From an uncultured delta proteobacterium (GTDB lineage: Bacteria > Myxococcota_A > Polyangia > Polyangiales > Polyangiaceae), in the NCBI GenBank assembly GCA_963696385.1, contig CAVOKF010000003.1, positions 384,001 to 448,000 on the forward strand: a stretch of DNA of 64,000 nt, in the 5' to 3' direction. This document shows, in pieces, positions 18,201 through 48,587 of this stretch. Position 1 is the stretch's first letter. Each line of letters begins with the position of its first letter. The notes beneath the pieces are model-generated. The model did not search any database. It saw nothing but the letters and a program-made list of their open reading frames with translations, and was not told the origin of the DNA. Position numbers and translations under genes: made by a program.

Positions 18201-20600
18201 TCATCCTTCTCGTAAAGCGGCACCAATGCCGCCGCCGCACGCTCGTCGTTCGGTACGACGGACAGCACCCGCTCGTAGGCTCGAAACGCGCGCTCCGCGA
18301 CGTTGAGCTCGTCGACGTAAATCCTCGCGCACCGAAAGCTCAGATCCACCTTCAATGCCGCATCGTTCGTCTTGTCGGCCGCCCCGGACAGGACTTCAGC
18401 AAGCCCCTCCCAGTCGCCATTTTGGGCATACAGGTCCGTCAGCCCATCGTAGTCGCCGATGCCGAGATAGCTGTCGCGGAGCACGCGCAGCGCCTTGGCG
18501 TGCCCGGGCTGGATGGACAGGACGCGCCGCCAGGCGCTCATGGCCATCGGCGGGTCATGGAGGCGGTCGGCGTAAATCGAACCAAGCTTCTGCAGCACGG
18601 CGAGCCGCGTCGCCGGGTCGACCGCAAGCGCCGCCCGCCGCTCCAATGCCTCGGCCACGGTTGCGAAGTCCTTGTCACGCTCCGCCTGTTTCTCGAGCGC
18701 GTCGAGAGCGGCCGCCGATGCGGGCTCCTCTTCCAAAACACGCTTGTAGAGCGCCACCGCTTGCGAGCCGAGGTCGAGGCGCTCGGCCCCGAGCTTCGCC
18801 ATCTCCATCCAACGCTCTCGCCGTTCAGGCCCAGCGGGCATCGCCTCGGCCTGCTCGCGGAGCAGATCGTAGAGCGGCGCGTACGCGCGACGTTTCGCGT
18901 AGAGTTCCCGCAAGCGATCGATCGCTTCACGGTCCTTGGGGTCGAGCGCGTGCAGCTTCTCGTAGGCCTCGATCGCGTTCTGGACGTTGGAGAATTGATC
19001 GAGCCAGCGACGCGCGACCGTCCGCCAAAGTTCGCCCTTTATGGTCGGTTCGAGTTCCAGCTCCGCTTGTCGCGCCTGCGTGGCCAACAGATCGCGCCAC
19101 CGCTGTAAGGCTTCGTAGACGCGCGCGAGCTCGCGCACGCTCACCAGGTCGTTTGGCTCGAGCTGTACGATCTGTGTCAAAACGGTTACGAGCGCGGAGT
19201 CGCTCTTGATGTGGTCGCGATAGATGCCCGCGATCTCGCGCAACACGACGAGACGCCCGGCCGGATCGTCGGACCCGACACGCTCGAGTTCCTGCCGGAG
19301 GAGATCGGTCAGCGCGTTCCAGCTGACGGTCTGACGGTAAAGCCGCTTGAGCGCGTCACGCGCCTCCTTGTTCCGTGGGTCTTGCCGCAAGAGCGAGCGC
19401 CAGTGCTCAATGGCCTTTTGTGCGTTGGACCCCTCCTCCGCGAGCTTGGCCACCTCCGCCACCAGCGACGACCGCTCCGGCCCGTCGGGCAGCGCGCGCT
19501 GCGCGTCCGTCAGGATGGCCGCAAGGCGCGGGGTCTCGCCCCGCGCGGAGCACCAGTCGCGAAAGAACGACAACATGCCCGGGTGAGCCGGATCCAGCTT
19601 GCGTAGCTTCTCGAACCACGGCTCGGCCGCGTCGGGCCGGCCCCGCATCCGCCAGTGGACCATCGCAATCTGCAAGGTCGCGCCGAACTCCTCGTCCCTG
19701 CCGCGGAGCACGCCCGCGGCGAGTTGCTCCTCGTAAAGCGCCACGAGATGCTCCCATCGAGCGGCGGCCGTGAAGTAGTCTGCCAAAAACGTCGCCGCCT
19801 CGGCGTGACCTGGCGCCAGATCCAAGACTCTTTCGTAGGCGACTGCGGCGCGCTCGGGCGCGCGGAGCCTCTTGGCGTACAGACGACCAAGACGAACCCA
19901 CCCGGCGATCTTCTCCTCCTTTTGGGTGGCTTCGGTCGCGAAGCGCTCGAGCGCGCGCGCGAGTTCGTCCCAACGCTGCCCCTCCCTCAAGACCCGCTCG
20001 AGGAGCATCTCGGCACGGCGGTTCTTGGGGTCCAGAATCCAGCGCCTCGCTGAGGATCTGCACGATTCGAGCGTCGGATTGCCCGGCATCGGCGCCATCG
20101 CCTCGTCCAAAGCGATACGTCACCTCGGCCGCACCGACGAGCAATGAGCTTCGGAACATCGCATCGGCGGTGCGAGAGGCCTCCTGAATGTATCGGTCGA
20201 CGAGCTCGCGCCACTTTGCGCGCTTCGCCTGGCCTCGCTCCTTCGCGTCGACGACGTCCGCGTCGTTCGGACGAATCGCGAGCAGACGGTCGTACACCAC
20301 GGTCGCCTTGTCGCCGTCCAGAAGCTCCTCGTCGAGCACCCGCGCGAGCTCGCCGAGCAACTGCCCCTCGCGGGCCGTTCCCCGCGCCGCGTCCACCTCG
20401 ATCTGGAGCAAGCCGGCCACGGCTTCGTACTCGCGGCGCGCTTCGTGCGCGCGTCGCGCAGCTTCCAGCAACTGTGCCAGATCGTCGGTGCTCATACCGG
20501 CGTCGCCGCCCAACTCGGTACGCAGCTCTTTCCACGCTTGGCCGCTCTCCGCGTCCTCTTGCAGCAGACCGAGGGCGCTCTTGATGCTCTTCGCGCTCAT
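9205..20600 (-). CDS. Giant tetratricopeptide-repeat protein (about 3797 aa once two +1 frameshifts are removed), AgmK/GltI-like
   Basis: Continuous TPR pattern (A...Y...L..DP....A...L..LY) across ORFs 19407-20600, 9944-20110 and 9205-10848. Removing one A at 20036/20037 and one at 10755/10756 joins them. Size and composition resemble myxobacterial AgmK/GltI; orthology not proven. Confidence 0.8.
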
Positions 20601-26743: not shown

Positions 26744-29695
26744 TCATTCGCCTCCGTCTTCGGGGGGCGAACTGCAAACACAATTGCCATTCCCGTCGCA
26801 CATCCCTGGGCAGTTGTTCGTCCCGGAGCACGACATTCCAGAGCCGATAGGCGTGTAGGAGCACCCGGTCGTGCCGCACGTCCCCGTGCTCGAATAGCAT
26901 GAGGAGGGAGGGCTGTTGCACGACGCGTCATTTGGCGTGTACGTGCACCCGGTCGCGCCGCACGTCCCCGTGCTCGAATAGCACGACGCGGGGGGGTTAT
27001 TGCACGACGCGTTATTGGCGGTGTACGTGCACCCGGTCGTGCCGCACGTCCCTGAATAGCACGATGCGGGGGGGCTATTGCACGACGCATTGTTCGGAGT
27101 GTACGTGCACCCAGTCGCGCCGCACGTCCCCGTGCTCGAATAGCACGACGCGGGGGGGTTATTGCACGACGCGTTATTGGCGGTGTACGTGCACCCGGTC
27201 GTGCCGCACGTCCCTGAATAGCACGATGCGGGGGGGCTATTGCACGACGCGTTATTCGGAGTGTACGTGCACCCGGTCGTGCCGCACGTCCCTGAATAGC
27301 ACGATGCGGGGGGGCTATTGCACGACGCATTGTTCGGAGTGTACGTGCACCCGGTCGCGCCGCACGTCCCCGTGCTCGAATAGCACGACGCGGGGGGGTT
27401 ATTGCACGACGCGTTATTGGCGGTGTACGTGCACCCGGTCGTGCCGCACGTCCCTGAATAGCACGATGCGGGGGGGCTATTGCACGACGCGTTATTGGCG
27501 GTGTACGTGCACCCGGTCTTGCCGCACGTCCCTGAATAGCACGATGCGGGGGGGCTATTGCACGACGCGTTATTGGCGGTGTACGTGCACCCGGTCGTGC
27601 CGCACGTCCCCGGGTTCGTATAGCACGATGCGGGGGGGCTATTGCACGACGCGTTATTGGCGGTGTACGTGCACCCGGTCGTGCCGCACGTCCCCGAATA
27701 GCACGATGCGGGCGGCGAGGCGCACGACGCATTGTTCGGAGTGTACGTGCACCCGGTCGTGCCGCACGTCCCCGGATTCGTATAGCACGATGCGGGCGGC
27801 GAGGCGCACGACGCATTGTTCGGAGTGTACGTGCAGGTGCCGTTCTCGCACGTTCCAGTGCTCTTATCGCATGCCACGGGTGGCGTGGTGCATGTCATGG
27901 CGGGGTACGAGCACTTGCCGCCGGTGCACGTCCCCGGGCCAGTCTCACACGTGCCCGGTGTGGTGCACGCGCTCGATGTACCGCCGGCCGCCGTGCAGCC
28001 CCCGCACGAGTCGGTCCCCGGCGCATTGCACGTCAGGGCATCGGTGCCATCGCACGCCCAGGTACCCGAACCGCACGTGGTCGTGCACGCGTCTCCCTTC
28101 GTGTGGCTAAGCGTCGTGCACCCCCCGCATTGGTTGAGAGCGGGCGCCACGCACTCGACGGTATCCGCGCCGTTGCACGTCCATGTTCCCGCGCAACCGT
28201 CCGCCCCGGTGCATCCCCCGCCTACCGTGTCCGGCAGCGTATTGCAGCCGCCGCATGCGTTTTGGGCCACGCAGGAGGTGGCCGAAGCGCAGCATTTACC
28301 CAGCGAACTCAAGCAGGAGGCGGCCGTGCACTCGCACGTGCCGTTGTCGCAGGCGAGCCCGTCCCCGCATCGATGGCACGTGCCCCCGTTGGCTCCGCAC
28401 GTGTCAATGCTCTGCGTCTCGCAGGTGGTCCCGTCGCAACAGCCATTCGGACAGGACGTCCCATCGCAGACGCACTGTCCGTCGCTGCAACGCTGGCCCG
28501 TACCGCAGGCGACGCACGCGGCCCCCCCCGTGCCGCATTGGCCGAGCGATTCGCTCTCAATGCACGAGGTGCCATCGCAGCAGCCGGAAGGGCACGACGT
28601 CGCGTTGCACACACACTTGCCGGCGCTGCATTCTTGGCCGGATCCGCATGTGGAGCAGGCGACCCCGCCGGTGCCGCAGGTGCCGTTGCCGGAGGTCTGG
28701 CAATTGTTATCCTTGTCGCAACAGCCGCTGGGGCAGCTCTTGGCGTCGCAGACACAACTGTCTTGCGCCGAGCACTCCTGGCCGGTGGCGCACTTTGCGC
28801 ACGCGACGCCGCTTGCGCCGCATTGCACGTTGCTCTCGGCCGTCACGCACGTGCCGTTGTTGCAGCACCCCGCGCAGCTCTTGCCGCCGCACAAGCACGC
28901 GCCAGCGCTGCACGCTTGGCCCTGATCGCACGCGCCGCAGACTTGGCCTCCAGAACCGCATGCCGCGTCGGGCGCTTGCGCGTCGAAGCCGATGCAGATC
29001 CCGTCGTTGCAGCAGCCGGGGCACGACCCGTTGCATAGACAGTTGCCGCTCGTCGTGTCGCAGCCCAGACCGGAGCCACACGCCGCGCAGGCGACGCCGC
29101 CCACGCCGCACATCGCGGGGGTTTGCGCCGCGTACGCGATGCACGTGTTTCCGTCGCAGCAGCCGTTCGGACACGATGCGAGGTCGCAGACGCAGCCCCC
29201 GTCGTCGCTGCACTCTTGCCCTGCGCCGCACGCCACGCAGGCCATCCCCGGAGCCCCGCAATTGGCCGTGGCCGAGGTCACGCAAACGCCGCCATCCGCG
29301 CAGCATCCCGTGCACGAAGCTCCGCAGGAGCAGACGCCGCCCGCGCAGCTCTGCCCGACGGGACAGTAGGCGCAGGCCCCCCCGTCCGTTCCGCATGCCG
29401 ATCCACCGGCGTCGCCCGTCTGGCAGACTCCGTTGGTGTCGCAGCAGCCCTGGGGACAGGTCGCGGAACCGCAGGGCGGTGGCCCCGCTTCCACGTCGGC
29501 GCGGACCTCATCGGCCGGAGCGTCGCCCGGCGGGACCACGTCCGGCATCGGGGTCGCATCCGTCATCGAAGAGTGCACGGACCCGTCGGGCGGCCCGGCA
29601 TCGCCCACCCCGAAATCGCCGAGCAGGCCAAGACAGCCCACGACGGCGAAGGACGCCATCGCGACCCAGAGAACGACCAGCAAACGATGTCGCAT
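26744..29695 (-). CDS. Cysteine-rich repeat lipoprotein (983 aa)
   Basis: Signal peptide with lipobox-like VVGC, Asp/Pro linker, then three types of Cys-rich repeat. Last gene of a kinase-PEGA-lipoprotein run. Confidence 0.8.
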   Translation of the reverse strand: MRHRLLVVLWVAMASFAVVGCLGLLGDFGVGDAGPPDGSVHSSMTDATPMPDVVPPGDAPADEVRADVEAGPPPCGSATCPQGCCDTNGVCQTGDAGGSACGTDGGACAYCPVGQSCAGGVCSCGASCTGCCADGGVCVTSATANCGAPGMACVACGAGQECSDDGGCVCDLASCPNGCCDGNTCIAYAAQTPAMCGVGGVACAACGSGLGCDTTSGNCLCNGSCPGCCNDGICIGFDAQAPDAACGSGGQVCGACDQGQACSAGACLCGGKSCAGCCNNGTCVTAESNVQCGASGVACAKCATGQECSAQDSCVCDAKSCPSGCCDKDNNCQTSGNGTCGTGGVACSTCGSGQECSAGKCVCNATSCPSGCCDGTSCIESESLGQCGTGGAACVACGTGQRCSDGQCVCDGTSCPNGCCDGTTCETQSIDTCGANGGTCHRCGDGLACDNGTCECTAASCLSSLGKCCASATSCVAQNACGGCNTLPDTVGGGCTGADGCAGTWTCNGADTVECVAPALNQCGGCTTLSHTKGDACTTTCGSGTWACDGTDALTCNAPGTDSCGGCTAAGGTSSACTTPGTCETGPGTCTGGKCSYPAMTCTTPPVACDKSTGTCENGTCTYTPNNASCASPPASCYTNPGTCGTTGCTYTPNNASCASPPASCYSGTCGTTGCTYTANNASCNSPPASCYTNPGTCGTTGCTYTANNASCNSPPASCYSGTCGKTGCTYTANNASCNSPPASCYSGTCGTTGCTYTANNASCNNPPASCYSSTGTCGATGCTYTPNNASCNSPPASCYSGTCGTTGCTYTPNNASCNSPPASCYSGTCGTTGCTYTANNASCNNPPASCYSSTGTCGATGCTYTPNNASCNSPPASCYSGTCGTTGCTYTANNASCNNPPASCYSSTGTCGATGCTYTPNDASCNSPPSSCYSSTGTCGTTGCSYTPIGSGMSCSGTNNCPGMCDGNGNCVCSSPPEDGGE
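26849..27820 (-). repeat. Intragenic tandem array of 12 units (6 x 78 nt and 6 x 84 nt) encoding NNASC[NA][SN]PPASCY(xx)xGTCGxTGCTYT[PA]
   Basis: Units counted in the translation and total 972 nt. Lines 27121/27361 and 27181/27421 are identical (240-nt period). Confidence 0.95.
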
Positions 29696-29744
29696 CAGAA
29701 AGTCCCCCTGCCCTTGGCAACCGGCGCGAGCCCTGCGCGTCGCA

Positions 29745-30710
29745 TCAGAACGTTCCGACCACGCCCACGTTCATCGGCCCTACATAGGCCGCGACCGGAC
29801 TCGACTTCGGAGCCGTGAGAACGAATGCGAGACCCGCCGCGGCGCCCGCGCCGCCGACGATCCAAGCGACCGTCGAAACGTTCGCGATCGTTCGGTACGT
29901 CGCGACGGCACCGCTCTCGTTCGAAGAGCAGACCCCGCTCTTGCTGCACGATCCGCCATTCATCAGCGATGCGTGCTTGGAAGCCGCGACGATCCCGGTG
30001 ACGGCCCCCGTGATCACTCCTGCCGCGCCCACGCCGAACGACACAATGGCGAGTGGCGTGGACGTGGACGTGGACGTGGCGGGCGTCGGCGACGCGGACT
30101 CGACGAGACCGCTCGCCGCGGCGCGAGCCTGCGGGAGTGGATCCATGGCGAGCGTCACCGTTTGCTCGCCCCCTTCGACGAGAACGAACGTGCTCTCGGC
30201 CGGCGCAAAGCCCGGAGCGGAGGCTTTGACCCAGTGTGCGCCGGGATCGCACGCACGGCGAACTCCGAGCGCCGCGACCGGGACCGCGATATCGTCGAGC
30301 GTCACCGTCGGCGACGTCGCTCCCCCCACTTGGATCGTGACCCACCCGAGCCGAGGCGCCAGAGCCGCCAGCTCCCGCTTCGATTCCTCGAGCGCTTTGG
30401 CAAATGCGGCGGGAGCATTGGGCGCCACCGGCTCGCGCAAGATGCGCTGATACGTCTCCTGCGCTTCGAGCAGGCGGCTCAGGCCGACCTGAGCGCGGGC
30501 CAAACCCAGAAGAAGCGTAGGCGCGTGAACGAGCGCTTCGGCGCGGGTGAACCGGTCGGCCGCGATGGCGTACTGGCCGTGCTGCTGCGCCTCGAACCCC
30601 TCGCGCGCGAGCGACCGCGCGGTCGCGCGGTCCGCATCCGATGGCTCCGCGAGGGCCGTGAAGGGGACCAGCCACACGATGGCAGCAACGAAAAGGAGGA
30701 GACGCTTCAT
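29745..30710 (-). CDS. Secreted TPR + PEGA-like protein with C-terminal hydrophobic segments
   Basis: Signal peptide MKRLLLFVAAIVWLVPFTALA; TPR (ARSLAREG...YAIAADRF...HAPTLLL); PEGA-like VTLDD...DPGAHWVKASAPG; two Gly/Ala-rich hydrophobic stretches; ends VGVVGTF. Confidence 0.8.
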   Translation of the reverse strand: MKRLLLFVAAIVWLVPFTALAEPSDADRATARSLAREGFEAQQHGQYAIAADRFTRAEALVHAPTLLLGLARAQVGLSRLLEAQETYQRILREPVAPNAPAAFAKALEESKRELAALAPRLGWVTIQVGGATSPTVTLDDIAVPVAALGVRRACDPGAHWVKASAPGFAPAESTFVLVEGGEQTVTLAMDPLPQARAAASGLVESASPTPATSTSTSTPLAIVSFGVGAAGVITGAVTGIVAASKHASLMNGGSCSKSGVCSSNESGAVATYRTIANVSTVAWIVGGAGAAAGLAFVLTAPKSSPVAAYVGPMNVGVVGTF

Positions 30711-30781
30711 GCCGGTAAACCCCCGAGCCCTACCCATACCGATTTTCTGAACAATCCAAAGAAAAGAAACTGACAGAGCGA

Positions 30782-32245
30782 CTAAATGCCAAAATCGACT
30801 TCGCCCGGAGCGGACGGCTTTGGACCCTGCTCTGGACGATTGGTCTTGTGAACGGGCACCCGTGTCGGTCCGGAGGAACGCGGCACAGACCCGGGCCTCT
30901 GACTCCATTCCGGCGGCGCAAGCGGGAGATCGCTCACGGAGGTCGTCGACTCGACGGGCGTCGCATCGAATTGCCGCCTCGACGAATCCGCGGCGGAGGC
31001 CGCCGGCGCGATCGCAGGCTTCAAGGACGCGCCCGACGCAGAAGGAGGACCGGGCCCGCTCGACACGGAACTGGGATTCACGGCGGCATTGCCCGTGGCG
31101 GGTGCTCCCGCGCGCGGATTGAAGAATCCGATGACGACCATGATGGCCATCGACCCCAAGACGGCCACCACGTAGCGCGATCGCATGAGTTGACGCGCGC
31201 CGAGAAGCGATTGGGTGAAGGGGGCCTGCGTCGTCGTGAGATGCGCCGGCTTGCGGCCGCGAAGGCGTGCGAGCGGCGGTTGGCTCGTCACGACCGGTGG
31301 GGTGGACGACTCGGGCGGCCGTCGTGCGCGCCACGTCTCGCGAGTGTCCGACGCGACACCGGGAATGGCGAGCGCGTCGCCCAGGGCCTCCGCGAGCTCG
31401 CGCGCGCTCGGAAACCGATCATCGGCATTGCGGGAAGCGGCGCGCGCCCACCAGATATCGAATTCAGGGGTCAGCCAGGGAGCCACCTTCGACGGCACGG
31501 GAATGGCCTCGTACATGATCTGGCCGAACAAGTCGCCGAGCGTCGGACTCTCGAAGGGCAACTGCCCGGTCAGACACTGGTAGGTGATCACGGCGAGCGA
31601 CCAGAGATCCGACCGGTGGTCGATTTCGCGGGTGCCGCGCGCCTGCTCCGGACTCATGTACGCGGGTGTTCCGACGAGCGACCCGGCTTGAGTCCCGGTC
31701 CCCTGCAACGAAAACGCGGCCGATTTCGCGACACCGAAGTCGAGGAGCTTGACGACTTCTTCGTCGTCGTCTTCCTGCGCGATGAAAATGTTCTCCGGCT
31801 TGATATCGCGGTGCACGAGACCGGCCAAATGGGCCTTGGCAAGGCCGCGTGCCACCTGGGAGACGATGCGATACGTCATCGTCGCATCGAGGTGCCCGAC
31901 CCGGCTCAATCTCGCGCAAAGATCTTCGCCCTGAAGATACTCCATGGCGATAAACGGCACGTCGTCGGCTACCGCGTAATCGAGAATACGAACGACATGA
32001 GGACTGTGAAGCTGCGCGATCGCCCGTGCTTCGAACTCAAAGCGCGTTCGGAAATTCGGGTCCGCCTGCGAATCGCTCGTCATGAACTTGACCGCACAGC
32101 GGACCTGCAGAGTAAGGTGGTCGGCAAGCCATACCGACCCCATGCTTCCGCGACCCAACTCGCGAACGAGTTTGAAGCGATTCGCGACAATACTGCCAAT
32201 GGTAGGTGTCACGCTCTCACTCGCGCCCCCGCGTGGCTCGCTCAA
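30782..32245 (-). CDS. Membrane-anchored Hanks-type Ser/Thr protein kinase
   Basis: GRGSMG, AVK, HRDIKPEN, DFG, GTPAYMSPEQ, DLWS; one TM; Pro/Ser-rich tail. Start is TTG 32245 or GTG 32212. Confidence 0.93.
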   Translation of the reverse strand: MSEPRGGASESVTPTIGSIVANRFKLVRELGRGSMGSVWLADHLTLQVRCAVKFMTSDSQADPNFRTRFEFEARAIAQLHSPHVVRILDYAVADDVPFIAMEYLQGEDLCARLSRVGHLDATMTYRIVSQVARGLAKAHLAGLVHRDIKPENIFIAQEDDDEEVVKLLDFGVAKSAAFSLQGTGTQAGSLVGTPAYMSPEQARGTREIDHRSDLWSLAVITYQCLTGQLPFESPTLGDLFGQIMYEAIPVPSKVAPWLTPEFDIWWARAASRNADDRFPSARELAEALGDALAIPGVASDTRETWRARRPPESSTPPVVTSQPPLARLRGRKPAHLTTTQAPFTQSLLGARQLMRSRYVVAVLGSMAIMVVIGFFNPRAGAPATGNAAVNPSSVSSGPGPPSASGASLKPAIAPAASAADSSRRQFDATPVESTTSVSDLPLAPPEWSQRPGSVPRSSGPTRVPVHKTNRPEQGPKPSAPGEVDFGI

Positions 32246-32681
32246 AAAATGCTACCAGAAGCCCTACCACGGGTAGGGTACTGGGTCCAGAGGTGGTCTC
32301 GCTCCGCATCGTCACCACGGGTGAGCACACGGTGTGCCCGCGCAGCTCAGCAGCTCGACCGCCTCCGGGAACCTCTGATTGTTCGGCGGGCCAACGCGCG
32401 CGCGCGCACCTCGCCCCAGGCGCGGATCGGACCGCGCCCGGCCCTTTCTTGGTGGTCACCCTCGGCCTCCGACTCGGCCTCGGACCGTAGCGGCCCGAGC
32501 GGGTCGAGTTCGTCGCCCCGCTCGGCGGCGCGAGCGGCGCCATGATCGGCGTGTCGCGGTCGATGCATGGGGACCCCAGCGTGGCGGCCCGCATCAGCTT
32601 TTTTTTCCCAGGATGGAAAAGCGGCCGATGCCCCCCCACGTGAGGATCGGCTGGGTGAAAGCCTTGGGGCCGCTGGACCGA

Positions 32682-33122
32682 TCAGGGCCCTTCGACGACG
32701 CGAAGCACAACGCGCGCCACACCGCGCGATCGAATCCCGATCTTGTCGGCCGCGGCACGCGAAAGATCGATAATTCGCTCCGGGTGCCCGAAGGGACCTC
32801 GGTCCGTGATTCGAACTCGGACCGACTGTCCGCTCTCGACGCAGGTCACCTCCACCCAGGTCCCGAATGCAAGGGTCCGGTGCGCGGCCGTCATTTGCCG
32901 TGGGTCGAACACTTCGCCGCTCGCCGTCCGCCGACCGGCGAGCCGGCCGCCGTACCAACTTGCGGTTCCGCGCTGAACCTCCAATCGCGGATTGAATCGC
33001 GGCGGCTCCGCGATGAATTCCTGGGGAGCCTCGCGAGCCGGAGGCTCCGCGTCGCGGTGCGCACACGCTCCGAGCGCCGTCAGGGTCCACCCTAAGGCGG
33101 CGACGAATCCGCGACGCCGCAT
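32682..33122 (-). CDS. rlpA: Septal ring lytic transglycosylase RlpA family lipoprotein (no SPOR domain)
   Basis: LGAC lipobox, GTASWYG, TASGE, TAAHRTL, DRGPF, IIDLS. Confidence 0.9.
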   Translation of the reverse strand: MRRRGFVAALGWTLTALGACAHRDAEPPAREAPQEFIAEPPRFNPRLEVQRGTASWYGGRLAGRRTASGEVFDPRQMTAAHRTLAFGTWVEVTCVESGQSVRVRITDRGPFGHPERIIDLSRAAADKIGIRSRGVARVVLRVVEGP

Positions 33123-33206
33123 CGGGCCGTACGTCTAGACGATCGGTCGAGGGATCGCGACACGCTCGCGGCCCCCCCGGGGGAGAAAGCCGTGCTCGCG
33201 CGGCAC

Positions 33207-35952
33207 CTAGTGGGCCTCGGCCCAACTCTTTCCCCAGCCCACGTCTACCACGAGCGGGACGGCGAGCTTGATGACGCCCGACATTCGCCCCCGAATGCGC
33301 TCGCCCGCCTCGGCCGCGTCGGCCTCCGGGACTTCGAACACGAGCTCGTCGTGCACGGTGAGCACCAAGGGCGTTCGCAGCGCTTGCTCACCGAGCCCAA
33401 GATCGACCATGGCGAGCTTCAGGATGTCCGCCGCCGTCCCCTGAATCGGTGTGTTTCGTGCCACACGCTCCGCCTCGAGCCGCAGCGCGCGATTGGCGGA
33501 GTGCAGGTTCGGCAAGAATCGGCGTCGTCCGAGCAGCGTGCGAACGGATTCGGCTTGGCGTGCCGCCTCGACGGTGTGATCCATGAACCTCGCCACGCCC
33601 GCATAGCGAGTGAAGTACGCGGCGATGAAGCGGGCGGCTTGCTCGCGAGCCACGCCGAGCTGTTTGGCGAGCGCACTGTCGCCCATGCCGTAAATCACGC
33701 CGAAGTTGATCGTTTTGGCCGCGCGCCGCTCGTCGGCCGTTACCCTGTCGCGCGCCTTGTCGAAAACGAGTGCGGCGGTGCGCACGTGAACGTCCTCGCC
33801 CGTCGCGAACGCATCGATAAGCTCGCTATCCTGCGCGAGGTGCGCCAGGACGCGCAGCTCGATCTGCGAGTAGTCGGCACTCAAGATGACGTGCCCCGGC
33901 GGCGCCACGAACGCCGCCCGAATGGCGCGGCCCACACCCGTTCGGATGGGGATGTTTTGCAGGTTTGGGTCGCTCGAAGACAGCCGACCCGTTGCGGCCA
34001 CTGCCTGATCGAAGCGCGTATGGATACGACCCGTGTTCGGGTCGACGCACTTCGGAAGCGCATCGATGTACGTCCCCTTCAGCTTGTCGAGCTCCCGAAA
34101 CGCGAGGATGCGCGACGGCAGCGCATGCGCATCGGCGAGAGCCTCCAGCGCGTCGGCGTCGGTCGATCGCCCCCCCTTCGGGGTGCGTTTCACGACCGGG
34201 AGCCTGAGCTCGTCAAAGAGGATTTTTTCCAATTGATCCCGCGAGCGGATCGCGAAGTCCCGGCCCGCCAGGGTCTTGCATTCACTTTCGAGATCCCGGA
34301 GCTTCTGCTCCACCGTGCGCCCGACGGCTTGCAGAGTCGCCACGTCCACGAGCACGCCCCGCAACTGCATCGCACAGAGGACACTCTCGAGCGGCATCTC
34401 GACATCCCGCATCCATCCGTCGAGTCCGTCGCCGGCGAGGCGCGACTCCATGCGCGCGCGGAGATCGAGTGCCATCTCCGCGCTTGCCGCCGCGAGGGGT
34501 GCGGCTCGTACCACGTCCAGCTCTTCGAACACGGCGCGAGAACCTCGCGACTTCGGCGAAGGTTCGTCGTACCGCGTCACCCGGACGCCGATTCTCTCTC
34601 GGCCAGATCGTTCAGACCGTTCGGCGCCTCGGGGTCCAGCAGGTACGCCGCGATCATCGTATCGAAGGCCGGGCCCCCGATCGTCACCCCGACACGCGCC
34701 AAAAGCGTCATGCAACGCTTGAGATCGTGACCCACCTTCGTGACACTCGCGTCCGCCAACAGCGGAGCCAGCCGCGGTCGAACGCACTGCCATTGGAGCT
34801 GAGTCGGGCATCCTAAGTACCGGTGCGCAAGCGGAATGTAGTGGCCACGACCTGCCTCGGTCGCGAGCGACACGCCCACGATCTCGGCTCGCGTAGCGGC
34901 CGGACCCGTCGCTTCGACGGCGATTCCGATCACGGCCTTGCGGCGCGCCTCGGCCACGACCGCTTCGAGCGACTCGATGTCGAGCACGCAGCCGTACACG
35001 CGTACGGCAGGCACCGCTTGAACGGCCGTCTTCGCCGGCGAACCTTCGCGCTCGCCGTCCGAGAGTTGATCAAGCTGGCCCAGCTGACGATGAAACTCCA
35101 GTTCGGTATACAGAGCACGCAGCGCGGCTATGTCCGCCCCGCCCCAAAGCAATTTCTTTGGTTCCAATCCAGAGGGGCGTCCACGTCGAGCGTCACGAGC
35201 TTGAGGGAGACGCGCGCGTCGGCCTCGTGCTGGCGCAAGCTCTCACGCAGCTTCGGCTTCGACACGTCATCGAGCGCGCCGAAGATGGCGTCGAAGGAAC
35301 CGAACTTCGCGAGAAGATCCGAAGCCGTCTTGGGTCCCACGCCGGGGACGCCCGGTACGTTGTCGCTCGTATCGCCGGTCAGCGCGAGAAAGTCACGCAC
35401 TCGACTGGGCGGCACCCCAAGCTTTTCGCGCACCTCCGCTGGACCGTAGACCCTGTCGCGCATCGAATCCCACAAGACGACTCGATCGTCGTCGTCGCGA
35501 ACGAGCTGCATCAGGTCCTTGTCGGCACTCACGATGACGACGCGCAGTCCTTCGGCCAACGCCCGTTTCGTCACGGCGCCGATGAGGTCGTCCGCTTCGA
35601 GCCCGTCCTTGCGGAAACACGCCGCGTCCCAAGCGTGCACGATTTGCTCGACGCGATTCATTTGCTGCGAGAGATCCGGCGGCGGTGCCGGACGTGTCGC
35701 CTTGTATCGAGCATCGACCTCGTGACGAAACGTCGGCCCTTTCGAATCCATGGCGACCGCAAGCCTGTGGGGCCGACGCTCGGTCACGATTTTTTGCAGC
35801 ATGTTCACCGTGCCGAGCACGGCATGGGTCGGCTCGCCGCGCGAGCTCGATAGGGGTGGCAGCGCGTGGTACGCGCGAAATACGTATCCGGAAATGTCGA
35901 CGAGATAGAGCGCGTCGGGCGCGCCGCGGTCGGGCAGCCTGGCCGCGCTCAT
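33207..35952 (-). CDS. polA: DNA polymerase I (about 915 aa; two single-base deletions near 35166 and 34592)
   Basis: 5'-3' exonuclease (YVFRAYHA, EADD, SADKD, GDTSDNVPGV), 3'-5' exonuclease-like domain, polymerase motifs (TGRLSS, DYSQIELR, KTINFG, VHDE) over three frames. Confidence 0.95.
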
Positions 35953-36114
35953 TCTCGGCTGCGATCCAAAGCGACGGCCCCGGCGCGAGCCAAGGCACGC
36001 GACCTCGCCATGCCGCCGGAGAACCCGACCCTCGACGCCTCGCAGAGCATGCGCTGGGCTTGTTAGCGGGCCGCATGAGACTCGTCTAATGTAGTGGCGC
36101 GGCGGCGCGCTTTG

Positions 36115-37536
36115 ATGAGCGATACGAACCTCCCCTTGCGCGGTCTGGTCGCTGGAAAGTACGAGCTGGTCCGTCTCATCGGTCGCGGCGGCATGGGGTA
36201 CGTCTGGGAGGGACGGCACGCGACTTTAGCGACGCGCGTGGCCATCAAGTTCGTCGACCCGGAGTACGCTGACAGCGCGGAGGCTCGCGCGCGTTTCGTG
36301 ACGGAGGCCCGCGCCGCGGCCACGATTCGGAGCAAATACGCCATTCAGATCTACGACCATGGGTTGACCGACGACGGGCGTCCGTACATCGTCATGGAAC
36401 TCTTGGCCGGGGAACCGCTCGATCGCCGACTGGAGCGGCTGGGTCGGCTGCCGCTAGGCGAGACGGCCCGACTGCTCGGGCAGGTCTGCCGAGCACTGCA
36501 GCGTGCGCACGACGCGGGCATCATTCACCGCGACCTCAAACCAGAGAACATATTTCTCGTCAGCTCCTCCGACGACGACGAGGAGATCGCGAAGGTTCTG
36601 GATTTCGGCATCGCCAAGTTCAAGGGCCTTCCGGGCGGACCGGCTGTGACGAGCAGCACAAGGACGGGAGCCGTGCTCGGTACCCCCTTCTACATGTCGC
36701 CGGAACAAGCGCGCGGGTTGCGCGACATCGACCACCGGACCGACCTTTGGTCGCTCGGCGTGATCGCGTACAAATGCGTCACCGGCATGTTGCCCTTCGA
36801 CGGCGAGAGCGTGGGGGACCTGCTGGTCAAAATCTGCACTGCCCCCCTTCCGGTTCCCTCTGTGACGCTGCCCGGACTGCCGGTCGGGTTCGACCGATGG
36901 TTCACGCGTGCACTCGAGCGCGAGCCCGGCCGGCGTTTCGGGTCGGCGTCGGAGCTCGCGGACGCCCTCGCCGCGACGGCGGGCATCACCGGGGCGGGCG
37001 CCCGCGCCCATCCGTCCGGCGCCCGTCCGATCGACGCGGTCGCGCCGGGGGAGTCGGCGTCGAGCGATGCCTACGAGGCTTCGGCGGCGGGCACTGGAAC
37101 GTCGGCGCCATTCATCGCCCCATCGACCGCGCCCGCGCGATCCACGCGCGCCAAGTGGATCGGTGTCGTCGCTTCGGGCGTGCTCGGGGGTACCGTCGGG
37201 GTCTTGGCCGTCGTGAGGGTCGTGTCGACGGCCCCATCGAGCCCCCAGAGAGTCGTCGAGTCGCCCATCCCCATTTCGCCGGCTTCGCCGGCACCCCCGG
37301 TCTCGGTCGGGCTCCCTCCCCCATCTGCGACCGCCGCGGGTCCCGTCGGTCCGAACCCGCCGTCGGTCCCGTCGCTCGCGACTGTCCGTACGCCGAGACC
37401 TCCGAGTGGGGCCGTCGTCCTCAAGCCCGTAGCGAGCGCGCCAACGGCGGCGTCGGCACGGCCGGCCCCTGCCCTCGCCTCGTCGTCTGCGGTGCCGGCA
37501 ACTTCCAAACCGATGACGGCGGATCCGGGGTATTGA
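36115..37536 (+). CDS. Membrane-anchored Hanks-type Ser/Thr protein kinase
   Basis: GRGGMG, VAIK, HRDLKPEN, DFG, GTPFYMSPEQ; one TM; Pro-rich tail ending DPGY. Confidence 0.94.
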   Translation: MSDTNLPLRGLVAGKYELVRLIGRGGMGYVWEGRHATLATRVAIKFVDPEYADSAEARARFVTEARAAATIRSKYAIQIYDHGLTDDGRPYIVMELLAGEPLDRRLERLGRLPLGETARLLGQVCRALQRAHDAGIIHRDLKPENIFLVSSSDDDEEIAKVLDFGIAKFKGLPGGPAVTSSTRTGAVLGTPFYMSPEQARGLRDIDHRTDLWSLGVIAYKCVTGMLPFDGESVGDLLVKICTAPLPVPSVTLPGLPVGFDRWFTRALEREPGRRFGSASELADALAATAGITGAGARAHPSGARPIDAVAPGESASSDAYEASAAGTGTSAPFIAPSTAPARSTRAKWIGVVASGVLGGTVGVLAVVRVVSTAPSSPQRVVESPIPISPASPAPPVSVGLPPPSATAAGPVGPNPPSVPSLATVRTPRPPSGAVVLKPVASAPTAASARPAPALASSSAVPATSKPMTADPGY

Positions 37537-37565
37537 CGTACCGATCGCCGGCCAAGGCCCTCCTC

Positions 37566-38882
37566 ATGCGAGTCCTTCCTTTCCTGGTCTCTGCGGCGGC
37601 CCTTGTCTGGAGCGGCGTGGCCGGCGCTCAGGTAAGCGACGCGGAACGCGCAGCCGCGCGGGAGTTGTTCAAGCAGGGCGACGAACTTCAACGAGCCGGA
37701 CGCTTCGCCGAAGCCCTCGACAAATTCGAACGCGCGCAGCAAGTGTTCGGCGCGCCCACCAACCAGCTTCGGGTCGCGGAATGCGACGCCGCCCTGGGGC
37801 GCCTGGTCGAGTCCGCGGAAGCGTATCGCGCGGTGGTGCGAACCGTGCTGCCGGTTGGGTCCCCCCCGGCGTTCCAAGCTGCGGTCGATCAGGCCAAGGC
37901 CGAGCTCGGACAGGTCGAACCGCGGGTACCGCGACTGACCGTCCAGGTGCAACCGACGGTCGACCGCGCCGAGCTGCGGATCGACGGCCAAACCGTCCCC
38001 TCGGCTCTGATCGGTGAACCGATGCCGCTCGATCCGGGCCGGCATCAAGTCGCGGTCAGCGCTCCGGGATACGCTCCGGCCGAACAGGTCATCGAGCTCA
38101 AGGAGCGCGAAAGCCAACCCGTTCGATTCGTACTCCGGTCGATGCCGACGGCGGCGCCGCCCCTGCCGCCACCGCCGCCCGCGCCCGCAAGCGCGCCGCC
38201 TCCGCCTCCACCGGCTCCGCCCTACGCTTCCGCCGCTTTAGTGCCGGCACCCCGTAGTGTCTCCGTCAATCGGCCGGTCTCGCGGCTCGGGCTCCTGTTG
38301 GGCGGTCACCTCGGCGGAGAAGTCTTGTCCGGCACCGTGCCGGTCGGGGCCGGGAAATCGGTCAACGCCGATGCGATCGCGTCGGCCGGCTTCGCATTCG
38401 GAGCGGACGCCGGCTTTCGCTTTGCGCGTCACTGGTTGGTGGGCGGCGTCGTCGAGCATGCGAGCCTCGGTCAAGGCAATCGCTCCGAACTCGGTTCCGG
38501 CGTCGCCGTGAGCTCCGACACGACGCTCGTCGGAGTCACCTTCGGTTTCATCGGCAATCCGGACTGGACGAGCTTTTATGGGGAGGTGGGCATTGCGAAT
38601 CGGTGGTTTCACTATCGGTCCACATGCCCCGGAGTCGGGGTAACGAGTTTCTGCGGTCCGATCGCGCCCGCGGACTACACGGACAGCAGCGCGGAATTCA
38701 CGCTGGGCGCAGGCGTCTGGATCCCAGGTGGCCGCTCGTTCCGGTTGCTCCCCAAGGCGACGCTGGGCTTAGGGGCGTTCAATCAGCCCGACCAAGACGC
38801 GGGCGCCGCCACGGCGACGAGCGCACCGTGGCACACGTTTTTCATGATTGGCATTGCGGGATTTTACAACCTGGACTTCTGA
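37566..38882 (+). CDS. Secreted TPR + PEGA protein with probable C-terminal outer-membrane beta-barrel
   Basis: Signal peptide; TPR (ARELFKQG...FAEALDKF); PEGA (LRIDG...LDPGRHQVAVSAPG); poly-Pro linker; alternating beta-strand pattern ending GFYNLDF. Confidence 0.8.
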   Translation: MRVLPFLVSAAALVWSGVAGAQVSDAERAAARELFKQGDELQRAGRFAEALDKFERAQQVFGAPTNQLRVAECDAALGRLVESAEAYRAVVRTVLPVGSPPAFQAAVDQAKAELGQVEPRVPRLTVQVQPTVDRAELRIDGQTVPSALIGEPMPLDPGRHQVAVSAPGYAPAEQVIELKERESQPVRFVLRSMPTAAPPLPPPPPAPASAPPPPPPAPPYASAALVPAPRSVSVNRPVSRLGLLLGGHLGGEVLSGTVPVGAGKSVNADAIASAGFAFGADAGFRFARHWLVGGVVEHASLGQGNRSELGSGVAVSSDTTLVGVTFGFIGNPDWTSFYGEVGIANRWFHYRSTCPGVGVTSFCGPIAPADYTDSSAEFTLGAGVWIPGGRSFRLLPKATLGLGAFNQPDQDAGAATATSAPWHTFFMIGIAGFYNLDF

Positions 38883-39120: not shown

Positions 39121-39489
39121 ATGACGAAGGCCGAGATCGTCCAGGCGCTCTACAGCAAAGTGGGTGGGTTCTCTCGCAAAGAGTCCGCCGAGCTCGTGGA
39201 CCTTGTCTTCGAGATGATGAAGGAGACACTTGGCCAGGGTGAGAAGCTGAAGGTGAGCGGCTTCGGCAACTTCGTCTTGCGCGACAAGCGGCAGCGACCG
39301 GGTCGGAACCCCCAGACCGGCCAACCGATCAACATCACCGAGCGACGTGTCCTCACGTTCAAGGCCAGCCAGATTTTGAAGCAAGCTCTGAACTTACGAA
39401 TCGACGCGGCCACCGCGAATGGCAGCGGCGCCGCGGCCACCGTCCTGGCCTCAAGCGGAGCCGCGGACGCGCTGGTGGCGAAGGATTGA
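39121..39489 (+). CDS. ihfA: Integration host factor alpha subunit
   Basis: MTKAEI, KVSGFGNF, RPGRNPQTG, VLTFKAS; followed by a MerR gene as is usual; extra Ala-rich tail. Confidence 0.92.
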   Translation: MTKAEIVQALYSKVGGFSRKESAELVDLVFEMMKETLGQGEKLKVSGFGNFVLRDKRQRPGRNPQTGQPINITERRVLTFKASQILKQALNLRIDAATANGSGAAATVLASSGAADALVAKD

Positions 39490-39510
39490 TCGAGGCACCG
39501 GGGCGGTCCA

Positions 39511-39936
39511 ATGGTGGCGACGAGTCCGGCAGCCCTTCCCACGAAGCCGTACTTCCGAATCGGCGAGGTCGCCGAGCTGGTTGGTGTCGAGCCTCACGTG
39601 CTCCGCTACTGGGAGCGCGAGTTTCGCGCGATTCGCCCGACGAAGAGCGCAAAGGGCCAGCGTGTGTATTCTCGGCGCGACGTCGAAAATCTCATGCGAG
39701 TCAGGGACCTTCTCTATCAAGAAGGTTTCACGATCGCGGGTGCGAAAAAACGGCTCGGCCGGGGCTCGCTGGATCTTCACACGCCCGAAGTGACGGCGCC
39801 GCCGCGGAGCATCGAACCGCCGCTGGCACGGTCCCACGAACCGCGTGCGGACCCCGACAAAGCGCGCGAGCAGCTGCTCGCGATGCGAGGCGACATCGAG
39901 GATTTTCTCGCCAAGCTCGGTCCGCCGACCCGCTGA
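39511..39936 (+). CDS. MerR family transcriptional regulator
   Basis: YFRIGEVAELVGVEPHVLRYWEREF...GQRVY...LLYQEGFTIAGAK. Confidence 0.92.
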   Translation: MVATSPAALPTKPYFRIGEVAELVGVEPHVLRYWEREFRAIRPTKSAKGQRVYSRRDVENLMRVRDLLYQEGFTIAGAKKRLGRGSLDLHTPEVTAPPRSIEPPLARSHEPRADPDKAREQLLAMRGDIEDFLAKLGPPTR

Positions 39937-39985
39937 TCTCACTTACGCTCGAGCCAAGAAGTGATTATAACGCGCGCCCTACCCC

Positions 39986-42169
39986 ATGCACAGGCGCCGC
40001 CGCTCGCACGCGCTGACTCTCCTGGCGCTCGTCGCGCCCCTATTTTCCGCGTCCGCCGTCCGCGCGCAAAGCACCGCGCGACCCGCGGCGGCTGCGGATT
40101 CGGCCGCCCCCACTGCCGCGCCATCGGCGAGTAGCCCTTCGCCGCAAAGGCCTCCGCTCATTACGCCCATCGCGGCGCCGACGGCCGCGAGCAGTCCGGC
40201 GGCACCGACGGCCGCGGCCGGTCCCGCGGCGGCGACGACGAGCCCGTCATCGCCTTCTTCGCTGGCGCCGGGCCGGCCGCCGACGGGGGTCATTAGCCCC
40301 GCACGCGACCAGCAGGACCTCGCCGCCCAGGGCGCCCAGCGACCGGACGCCGGCGAGCTCGCCGGAGGCGCCAAGCAGACCTTCAGCGACGATTGGTGGG
40401 GCCGGGCACGGCCGATCATCGAGTTTCACGGCTTCTTTCGCACACGCGCGGAGCTCTTTCAGAATTTCGGGCTCGGCCGACACAGCAGCAGTCTTCAGGG
40501 GAACGACCCGCAGTACCTTTGGCCGCAGCCGCTCGACAACTCCTACACGGTCATCAGCCCCGGGGGCGACGCCGGAGGATCGCGCAGCGTGAACGTGTGC
40601 GGCAACGCATCGCCGCCAACCGCCAATTGCTACGACAAGAGCGAGTCGAGCGCCAACATGCGTTTGCGGCTCGATCCGGAGATCGACATCTCGGACAACC
40701 TGAGGATCGTGACCGAGGTCGATCTTCTCGACAACGTCGTGCTCGGGTCCACCCCAAACTCCTACGCGACACAACCAGCGGGCTCGTCCACCACGGGAAC
40801 GAGCAACGCGCTGAAGACCCCGACGGGCTACCAGTCCGCCGGCTACAATGCGTACGCGCCCGTCGGGTTCTTCGCCACGACCCAAGGGCCGCCCACGGCA
40901 GGCGTCAACTCCACGACGAACTCGATCGACGTTCAGCGAGTCTGGGGCGAGTACATGACTCCCGTCGGACAGCTTCGCTTCGGGCGAATGCCAAGCCAGT
41001 GGGGTCTCGGCATGGTCGACAATGCCGGCGACGGCATCGACAGCGACTACCAAACCACCGTCGACCGAATCATGTTCGTCACCGGGATCAAGTCGATGGA
41101 TGTGTTCTTCGGCGGCGCGTGGGACTTCATTTCCACCGGTCCGACGGCGCTTCCCGGAGCCAGCACCTCGACCGTATGGGACGTTTACGGCGGGCAACCG
41201 TACAACACGTGCAACCGCTGCAACGTGGGCGAATGGGCCGCATGGGTTGCGCACCGCACCAACCCCGACCTCCAGCGATTGTCGCTGACGCGCGGCGACG
41301 TGGTGATCAACGGAGGACTCTACGCCAAGTTCCGTCGTCAAGACATCGACGTCGCCTCCGGAAGCGGCGAGATCCCGCAAACGGTCGACTCCACGAACCC
41401 GAACGACCTCGAGGCGCGCAAAGCCTGGGCGTTTACGCCGGACCTGTGGGTGCAGATGCTTTGGCGCAAATTGCGATTCGAGGCCGAGGCTGCGATGATC
41501 TGGGGCGAGATCGGGTCCCTTCCCGGTCTCGAAGAGGCCACGGTCGCCAACCCCGTCGACATTCGCGAGTTCGGCGTCGTCACGCAGACCGAGTACCGTG
41601 CGATCGACGACAAGCTCGATCTCCAATTCGGCTTCGGCTACGCGAGCGGCGATCCCTGGGCATACAACTCCGCGGGATCGGGCGTGCAAGGTCAAGGCGC
41701 ACTGCAACCAAACGGAGCCGGTGTGCAGGATGAGTTCAACAACGGACCGATGTCGACGTTCCGCTTTCATCCCGATTATCGCATCGATCTCATCTTTTTT
41801 CGCAACATCCTCACGCGGGTCGAAGGCGCGTACTACTTCCGCCCGAGCGTCGACTACGACTTCATTCGCCACTCGGACGGCGAGAAGATCGGCGGCGGCC
41901 TCGCGGCCATCTACAGCCGAGCCAGCGAGTTCGTCCAAACTCCCGGTCATCAGAGCGACCTCGGGATCGAGTTCGACGGCCAGCTCTACTACCAGTCGAA
42001 GGATGGGTCGCTCAACGACGACCCCAGCAAAATTGGCGGCTTCTACGCCATGCTGCAGTACGGCGTCTTCTTTCCCTTCGGTGGACTGGCCTATCTCGGC
42101 ACTCAGCCGTTCAACGCAAGCCTTTCCGCGGCACAAATCGCGCGTCTTTTCCTCGGCATCGTCTTCTGA
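39986..42169 (+). CDS. Outer-membrane beta-barrel protein, probably myxobacterial TIGR04551-like
   Basis: Signal peptide, Ala/Pro linker, HGFFRTR, ANMRLRLDP, LRFGRMPSQWGLG, FHPDYRIDLIFFR, terminal LGIVF. Confidence 0.7.
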   Translation: MHRRRRSHALTLLALVAPLFSASAVRAQSTARPAAAADSAAPTAAPSASSPSPQRPPLITPIAAPTAASSPAAPTAAAGPAAATTSPSSPSSLAPGRPPTGVISPARDQQDLAAQGAQRPDAGELAGGAKQTFSDDWWGRARPIIEFHGFFRTRAELFQNFGLGRHSSSLQGNDPQYLWPQPLDNSYTVISPGGDAGGSRSVNVCGNASPPTANCYDKSESSANMRLRLDPEIDISDNLRIVTEVDLLDNVVLGSTPNSYATQPAGSSTTGTSNALKTPTGYQSAGYNAYAPVGFFATTQGPPTAGVNSTTNSIDVQRVWGEYMTPVGQLRFGRMPSQWGLGMVDNAGDGIDSDYQTTVDRIMFVTGIKSMDVFFGGAWDFISTGPTALPGASTSTVWDVYGGQPYNTCNRCNVGEWAAWVAHRTNPDLQRLSLTRGDVVINGGLYAKFRRQDIDVASGSGEIPQTVDSTNPNDLEARKAWAFTPDLWVQMLWRKLRFEAEAAMIWGEIGSLPGLEEATVANPVDIREFGVVTQTEYRAIDDKLDLQFGFGYASGDPWAYNSAGSGVQGQGALQPNGAGVQDEFNNGPMSTFRFHPDYRIDLIFFRNILTRVEGAYYFRPSVDYDFIRHSDGEKIGGGLAAIYSRASEFVQTPGHQSDLGIEFDGQLYYQSKDGSLNDDPSKIGGFYAMLQYGVFFPFGGLAYLGTQPFNASLSAAQIARLFLGIVF

Positions 42170-48531: not shown

Positions 48532-48587
48532 GCACTCGCGAATGCCACCCGTTCCCTGCTAACGTAGTGCGGTCGAGGACCGTCGGC

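Follow-up and report, generated by a model that had tools for sequence, protein, structure and literature searches.

The window analyzed here is a 64,000-nucleotide stretch from an uncultured delta proteobacterium of the Polyangiaceae (contig CAVOKF010000003.1, positions 384,001 to 448,000), whose source genome is called G000 below. It carries two oppositely oriented gene cassettes, each combining a Hanks-type kinase (K1, K2) with an adaptor (P1, P2) built on a tetratricopeptide repeat (TPR) domain and a PEGA domain; cassette 1 also encodes a Cys-rich lipoprotein, L1 (Table 1). K1, P1, and L1 are on the minus strand and K2 and P2 on the plus strand, with rlpA and polA between them, and the coordinates and strands of these five open reading frames (ORFs) were all as an earlier sequence-only reading of this DNA had given them. 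Comparative evidence suggests that the kinases end in short peptides addressed to the TPR domains of their adaptors. The comparative case for such a tail–TPR code is strong, and the cassette is a real, widespread, and apparently undescribed variant of trans-envelope kinase signaling.

Table 1. Features of the two cassettes and of the genes between them (window positions)
Feature	Coordinates	Strand	Description and basis
K1, Hanks-type Ser/Thr kinase	30782..32245	-	Transmembrane helix ~31121-31174, ~112-residue Pro/Ser/Ala periplasmic linker, C-terminal tail
K1 tail, D-F-G-I	30785..30796	-	Directly before stop; conserved at protein level
P1, adaptor	29745..30710	-	Signal peptide, two TPRs plus cap (residues 25-120), PEGA-like β-sandwich (122-188), linker, helical hairpin (217-299; two long helices with Cys255/Cys261 at the tip), C-terminal β-hairpin ending G-x-F; AlphaFold2 model (pLDDT 84), fold searches, conservation
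L1, Cys-rich lipoprotein	26744..29695	-	983 residues; Cys21; conserved N-terminal motif, variable repeat body
L1 N-terminal motif, C-x-x-L-L-G-D-F type	29612..29635	-	After the lipid Cys; predicted docking segment
L1 tandem array	26853..27796	-	78 bp, 11.6 copies, 87% matches; encodes 26-28-residue Cys repeats
K2, Hanks-type kinase	36115..37536	+	One transmembrane helix, ~107-residue linker, C-terminal tail
K2 tail, D-P-G-Y	37522..37533	+	Directly before stop
P2, adaptor	37566..38882	+	Signal peptide, TPR (25-117), PEGA (123-189), Pro linker, 8-stranded OmpA-like β-barrel (242-437); AlphaFold2 model (pLDDT 87), Foldseek, Pfam
rlpA	32682..33122	-	TIGR00413 over cut-off; neighbor outside the system, beside the P1 clade only in G003
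polA	33207..35952	-	Neighbor; three reading frames in this assembly

Both kinases match Pfam Pkinase over its cut-off and have intact GxGxMG, AxK, HRDxKPEN, and DFG motifs, as expected for Hanks-type Ser/Thr kinases. Over the kinase domain they share 48% identity, and beyond it nothing aligns; the two are close paralogues. The two motifs that the sequence-only reading had found common to K1 and K2, DDDEExxKxLDFG and MSPEQARGxRxIDHRxDLWSL, occur in G000 in these two of 109 kinase ORFs only. Its observation that the kinases have a Pro-rich linker and no folded extracytoplasmic sensor held as well: the 112 (K1) and 107 (K2) residues that follow the transmembrane (TM) helix are of low complexity, rich in Pro, Ala, Ser, and Thr, and give no PASTA match. 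In G000, 81 of 110 kinase ORFs have a TM helix and 29 do not; a TPR/PEGA gene lies directly downstream of 22, all of them among the 81 (none of the 29) and all with a linker after the helix. Among 128 non-duplicate kinase–adaptor pairs collected from all samples, a TM helix is present in 126 of the kinases, and the stretch after it has a median length of 104 residues (5–95% range, 80–138).

The linkers themselves are close to random in sequence, the last 100 linker residues of K1 being 28% identical to those of 49 kinases of its class (27% when shuffled) compared with 56% for the kinase domains, and the conservation is found at the very end. In the TPR clade to which P1 belongs (51 rows, SH-aLRT support 97), all 51 partner kinases end in G-[IF]-stop and 48 in D-[FY]-G-[IF], across a range from the source genus to Sorangium and Chondromyces. 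In the barrel-type TPR clade of P2, all nine adjacent kinases end in DPGY, and the kinases of other TPR clades have other tails. The 52 tails compared vary synonymously at all four codons and use all three stop codons, and their distance to the TPR domain ranges from 67 to 228 nt. Because codons, stops, and spacing all vary, it is the peptide with its free end that is constrained, and a reason at the DNA or RNA level was rejected.

Three G000 proteins that have a TM helix and a linker and lack a kinase domain bear the same kinds of tails. One (L212:1393-3354, plus strand; G000 C5:1182393-1184354) is family-less, ends in a GGRx tail, and is encoded directly upstream of a TPR-PEGA gene; the second (L213:931-2607, plus; C7:1143431-1145107) is a PilZ/TIGR02266 protein with an NPY-type tail as seen in some kinases. 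The third (L211:1189-1920, minus; C8:795689-796420) is a membrane protein with a linker and a DFGI tail; its orthologue was found in 1 of 30 genus genomes, that of the closest relative of the source genome, G003 (78% identical, ending DFGM). It is possibly a decoy, or the partner of an orphan adaptor on contig C4, a second member of the P1 clade that is 72% identical to P1 and has no kinase. By this comparison, the tail module is portable between proteins.

Other C-terminal ends were also seen. A kinase class with a tail of about 20 residues and two Cys occurs at G000 C4:29875-32375 and in similar cassettes, and two partners of such kinases are without about 33 residues of the TPR domain. A GltJ-like protein in the window (48567-50165, plus; NF033761, below the cut-off) has a C-terminal end that resembles, by eye, that of a kinase on C7 (L225:916-2748, plus). 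In some kinases, the place of the tail may thus be taken by an end domain that is folded.

The distribution of the cassette was assessed with a profile derived from the paralogues within G000, which found 41 full TPR-PEGA ORFs there. A kinase lies directly upstream on the same strand in 18 of these 41, compared with 59 of 4,749 background genes (1.2%) from our own gene caller. Two further samples were added, namely 100 loci from the listed matches in relatives, all TPR-bearing and from genomes other than G000 and G010, and the best 80 of 117 GTDB loci, six of which repeat earlier loci. Of the 222 TPR-PEGA genes in this pooled set, 209 have at least 1.5 kb of upstream sequence, and 126 of these have an upstream kinase (18/41 in G000, 60/97 in relatives, and 48/71 in GTDB). 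Hence, the enrichment of the kinase–PEGA gene order, on which the sequence-only reading had staked its proposal, was found both within the genome and across loci. P1 was matched in 21 of 21 genomes (a tally that includes G010, which is used for no other result) and, at the level of the phylum, in 62 of 121 genomes, with an upstream kinase at 13 of 29 loci within a 1.5-kb flank. Homologues occur in named Polyangiaceae, and the culturable genera Sorangium, Chondromyces, and Minicystis have members of the same clade. The two cassettes of the window are two of many paralogous cassettes in the genome.

For the question of whether tail and TPR belong together, 121 of 128 tails could be sorted into 11 classes, using patterns picked after inspection of the tails. 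FastTree trees were built from 115 pairs, after removal of nine partial kinases and four unclassified tails. The tail class changes 13 times on the TPR tree and 19 times on the tree of the kinase domain of the very same polypeptide (minimum 10, shuffled 59), and at one locus (L133) the kinase domain is of another clade, yet the DFGI tail and a DFGI-clade TPR are kept. Since the tail adjoins the TPR gene, linkage could cause such a match, and we therefore examined unlinked pairs, that is, adaptors for which the nearest TM kinase lies elsewhere than directly upstream, scoring each tail by its resemblance to those expected from the best-matching relatives of the TPR. For 23 such pairs, two of which are upstream with a wider gap, the mean tail score was 8.1 compared with 1.4 after shuffling (0 of 3,000 shuffles). 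The 14 pairs on opposite strands scored 9.5 compared with 2.1 (0 of 20,000), and 10.1 compared with 2.2 (0 of 20,000) when two near kin were removed.

The structural models fit a peptide-binding role of the TPR. In the P1 model, residues 25–120 form five helices (pLDDT > 90), which are two repeats and a capping helix, the arrangement of Tah1 and Hop; the match to Tah1 has Z 13.9 and a root-mean-square deviation (rmsd) of 2.2 over 91 aligned residues, scores that helical repeats reach easily. The sequence-only reading had proposed that the kinase tail docks on the TPR of its envelope partner. Tail conservation, co-segregation with TPR clades, matching of unlinked pairs, and the peptide-binding fold all speak for this; the binding itself we infer from them, and we consider it probable, with good confidence, that the tail binds the TPR of its cognate adaptor.

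P1 and P2 are 39% identical, over the TPR and PEGA domains only, and then end differently. The P2 C-terminus has eight long strands and an aromatic end, as an OmpA-like eight-stranded barrel should; its top Foldseek matches are OmpA (E = 3.5e-7), and the Pfam match to OMP_b-brl is weak (E = 0.003). Based on this model, P2 is very probably an outer-membrane protein. P1 has the helical hairpin instead, and its fold searches were filled by TPR and sandwich matches; in Atlas, the C-terminal domain scored 0.95 to unnamed Myxococcota clusters and 0.79 to DUF5683, the latter a lead only. Among 71 hairpin domains, the Cys pair in the loop is kept in 92%, the C-terminal Gly in 89%, and the Phe in 80%. 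A terminal G-x-F resembles barrel-assembly signals. The Cys pair lies beyond the first hydrophobic helix of P1, and, should this helix span a membrane from the periplasmic side, the loop would face the cytoplasm if P1 were in the inner membrane and the outside if it were in the outer membrane. A Cys pair would suit the cell surface better than the cytoplasm, since a disulfide favors the outside, and an outer-membrane location of P1 is rather likely.

L1 has 983 residues here and 697 in its G003 orthologue, and neither Pfam nor NCBIfam gave a match for it; the Atlas lead, Stig1-like, scored only 0.80. A lipoprotein, with the lipobox assigned by pattern only, follows 106 of 184 hairpin-type adaptors and 7 of 15 short forms, compared with 66 of 1,200 control genes. 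None follows the 15 long (barrel) adaptors, many of them orthologues, by the strict rule, and a looser pattern flagged one. The motif C-x-x-hydrophobic-hydrophobic-G/D is present in 84 of 103 cassette lipoproteins compared with 14 of 257 lipoprotein candidates of the genome, several of these 14 being cassette members themselves. Behind this motif, the bodies are interchangeable: the 49 lipoproteins with its GDF form belong to five body families that are unrelated to one another, and, of 34 cassette lipoproteins scanned, 9 have Pfam matches (RCC1, Lcl, propellers, Calx-beta, and one integrase fusion) and 25 have none. Such a combination of a constant end for docking and a variable body resembles a receptor or adhesin repertoire. 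The suggestion of the sequence-only reading that the variable lipoprotein is the surface receptor is in keeping with the shared motif on exchangeable bodies and does not carry over to cassette 2, which has a barrel and no lipoprotein. For cassette 1, L1 could quite possibly dock through its N-terminal motif on the P1 hairpin and sense an outside ligand or contact, which we put forward tentatively. At locus L064:3527-6451 (plus), a cassette lipoprotein continues into an integrase/HTH frame, suggesting an insertion sequence.

Taken together, we lean slightly toward a mechanism in which a disordered kinase arm is plugged by its tail into the TPR of an outer-membrane adaptor and an event at the surface switches the kinase. 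The unstructured arm would cross the periplasm, and its C-terminus would occupy the TPR groove of the adaptor. In cassette 2 the loops of the P2 barrel may sense directly, and in cassette 1 the P1 hairpin would hold the lipoprotein L1. Clustering of, or tension on, the adaptors could then lead to dimerization and autophosphorylation of the kinase, a dimerization-driven mode known for PknB/PpkA-type kinases. FHA proteins would be likely readers of the kinase output, and the tail and TPR classes would work as addresses by which dozens of paralogues stay separate. FHA-σ54 activators are encoded beside three other G000 cassettes and at neither of the two described here, a crude pattern count of 3/41 compared with 1.3% at random. 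Elsewhere in G000, a type VI secretion system (T6SS) sheath gene (C6:459512) lies about 14 kb from an NPY-tail kinase, an adaptor, and an FHA-σ54 activator (L217, C6:474217-483088).

Several observations weigh against this reading. About 40% of the TPR-PEGA genes have no kinase directly upstream, 7 of the 23 unlinked pairs showed no tail match, and no substrate gene was found within the two cassettes. The tail classes are post hoc patterns in a sample rich in kin. Position 32 of the TPR is Arg in 39 of 47 adaptors with non-basic tails and Glu or Gln in 14 of 20 with basic tails, and yet none of three phylogenetically independent pairs went the same way (Arg32 with acidic, Glu/Gln32 with basic tails), so that charge complementarity at this position has no independent support. 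Class-specific positions fell on 4 of the 12 published groove positions compared with 8 of 59 others, which is no significant enrichment (p = 0.11); eight positions of our own choosing gave p = 0.024, which we do not count as evidence. Finally, the motif class of the lipoprotein agrees about as well with the TPR tree (7 changes) as with the C-terminal tree (8 changes).

Every one of the tail–TPR results would fit equally if the tail bound the TPR as a tether or stabilizer, so that the adaptor protects or positions the kinase, or the tether reports the integrity and spacing of the outer membrane, while the lipoprotein reads no outside ligand. The tightly held periplasmic length given above would also agree with this, as would the location of cassette 2, which has no lipoprotein, at the core locus polA–ihfA; in an excerpt of PMC6082577, the PpkA level falls on loss of RtkS. 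We consider such a tether or stabilizer unlikely, given that it leaves unexplained the dozens of paralogues with distinct tails and the swapped lipoprotein bodies behind one motif. That tail and TPR have no physical link at all, and match only through joint gene duplication, is in our view highly improbable: most pairs are indeed adjacent and co-inherited, and the test with independent pairs was null, but the match persists on opposite strands and survives a kinase-domain swap, and the tail is conserved behind a randomized linker.

Two other explanations concern the envelope side. TPR-PEGA proteins could be exporters or display factors for the downstream lipoproteins, with a Slam-like logic, the kinase regulating or monitoring display. 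They do combine a TPR with an outer-membrane domain beside a lipoprotein that has a conserved N-terminal motif, and a lipoprotein accompanies 40 of the 74 hairpin-type adaptors that have no kinase upstream; on the other hand, the barrel form, which is the most translocon-like, lacks a downstream lipoprotein by the strict rule and has only eight strands, and the TPR co-varies with the kinase tail, which makes export a quite unlikely function. It is more improbable still that P1 acts as a co-receptor in the inner membrane, with L1 as a lipoprotein of the periplasm, such that cassette 1 never reaches the cell surface. Two hydrophobic helices are the usual form of an inner-membrane anchor, and the terminal β-hairpin of the P1 model is poorly modeled, its last 20 residues having pLDDT < 50; against this, the conserved Cys pair would then point into the cytoplasm, the G-x-F terminus is like that of barrel-assembly signals, and the sister adaptor has a true barrel in the same place.

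Parallels for single parts of the cassettes exist. A Lys/Asn carboxylate clamp is typical of Hop-type TPRs, and the Slam/type XI translocon combines a TPR with a 14-stranded barrel. In FecA–FecR–FecI, the periplasmic N-terminal domain of an outer-membrane protein contacts the C-terminus of an inner-membrane transducer. Slam is not matched, the P2 model having 8 strands and P1 a helical hairpin; the output of the cassettes, unlike that of Fec, is a kinase, and no TonB-dependent receptor, FecR anti-sigma, or ECF sigma factor was found among the 11 and 10 window proteins scanned. The co-chaperone TPRs of Hsp70/Hsp90 (Tah1, Hop, Sgt2, and RPAP3) have the same small fold that binds C-terminal peptides (Z 11–14, rmsd ~2), but they are eukaryotic and cytosolic. 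According to consensus mapping, P1 is without the canonical clamp as such (Ala35, Phe39, and Gly69), with Arg32 and Arg72 as candidate anion contacts. Ligand contacts of TPRs at repeat positions 2, 5, 6, 9, 12, and 13 are given in an excerpt of PMC1261162. K1 and K2 resemble the Stk1/PknB kinases in kinase–TM topology and in the catalytic domain (NF033483, 254 and 251 bits), whereas they have neither PASTA domains nor another folded sensor and fall far below the 450-bit cut-off of that family.

The closest working logic is that of TagQRST in Pseudomonas aeruginosa and RtkS in Serratia marcescens, the threonine phosphorylation pathways of type VI secretion, where PpkA, a Hanks kinase of the inner membrane, is under the control of a partner that is encoded nearby and acts through the periplasmic part of the kinase, the input of the Pseudomonas pathway beginning at the outer-membrane protein TagQ (excerpts of PMC6082577 and PMC10482370); dimerization and autophosphorylation of PknB/PpkA-type kinases are described in the latter excerpt. 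The cassettes are not members of this system, which requires a T6SS cluster with fha and pppA; the two cassettes, whose neighbors are miaB, rlpA, polA, and ihfA, have no T6SS, fha, or pppA gene, and the sole TssC match of G000 is on contig C6. Unlike PpkA, the cassette kinase shows only a linker and a four-residue tail, and the partner differs from RtkS or TagR in being a TPR-PEGA protein that carries a membrane anchor itself and has about 40 paralogues per genome. No Pfam or NCBIfam match to the TagR/RtkS family was obtained among the window proteins, and the P1 model has a weak fold match (E = 0.004) to chain D, which may be RtkS or PpkA, of the RtkS–PpkA crystal 9k1u.

The Agl–Glt gliding complex of Myxococcus xanthus (GltJ/GltG, GltC, GltF, GltABH, and CglB) likewise has inner-membrane proteins with long disordered periplasmic arms. 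In the predicted Glt model, a crevice of GltC, a TPR protein, receives the C-terminal segment of GltF, and CglB, a lipoprotein of the cell surface, uses its residues 4–9 to dock on partners in the outer membrane (excerpt of PMC11761067). That complex, however, is a motor-driven adhesion machine without a kinase, GltG and GltJ end in a folded TonB-like domain, and Pfam/NCBIfam scans detected no homology between the cassette proteins and Glt. Searches of the full-text literature turned up no description of the kinase–TPR-PEGA–lipoprotein arrangement, subscription papers, the 2008 myxobacterial kinome paper, and supplements, which may list gene order, being outside this scope; an excerpt of PMC7159879 concerns other systems.

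Turning to the locus itself, cassette 2 adjoins polA in all eight genus orthologues examined and ihfA in seven; ihfA comes next downstream, and ihfA, a MerR-like gene, and a TIGR04551 protein (39121-42169, plus) follow in seven of the eight. Cassette 1 is beside rlpA in G003 only, and the layout with two cassettes around rlpA–polA was likewise seen only there. The flanking arrangement pointed out by the sequence-only reading is therefore present but not conserved; the idea of a conserved pairing was rejected, the pairing is lineage-specific, and the layout is probably incidental. In G003, polA is a single open frame (92% identical), relative to which single bases are missing from the window near 35152 and near 34592; the frame breaks are probably assembly errors. 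Contigs from four metatranscriptomes bridge the K1–P1 junction in three runs and the P1–L1 junction in one, which does not show a single transcript. A giant TPR-rich protein of ~3,500 residues, apparently split by frameshifts near its start and end, is encoded at 9944-20600 (minus).

Beyond the two cassettes, a broader proposal could be entertained, with some doubt: a modular plug-and-socket code across the periplasm, in which at least a dozen short C-terminal tails can be grafted onto kinases, PilZ proteins, or enzyme-less decoys and every tail is specific to a single clade of outer-membrane TPR adaptors, these adaptors in turn holding interchangeable surface lipoproteins through a second short motif. 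The genome has ~110 eukaryote-like kinase ORFs, many of whose inputs are unexplained because only a disordered arm lies outside the membrane. Tail–TPR matching offers a genome-wide rule by which orphan kinases can be paired with orphan adaptors, and the cassettes suggest a family of helical-hairpin outer-membrane anchors and a lipoprotein docking motif. If true, the plug-and-socket code would explain where many sensor-less kinases of myxobacteria get their input, and would stand as a bacterial analogue, with combinatorial wiring, of two-part receptor kinases.

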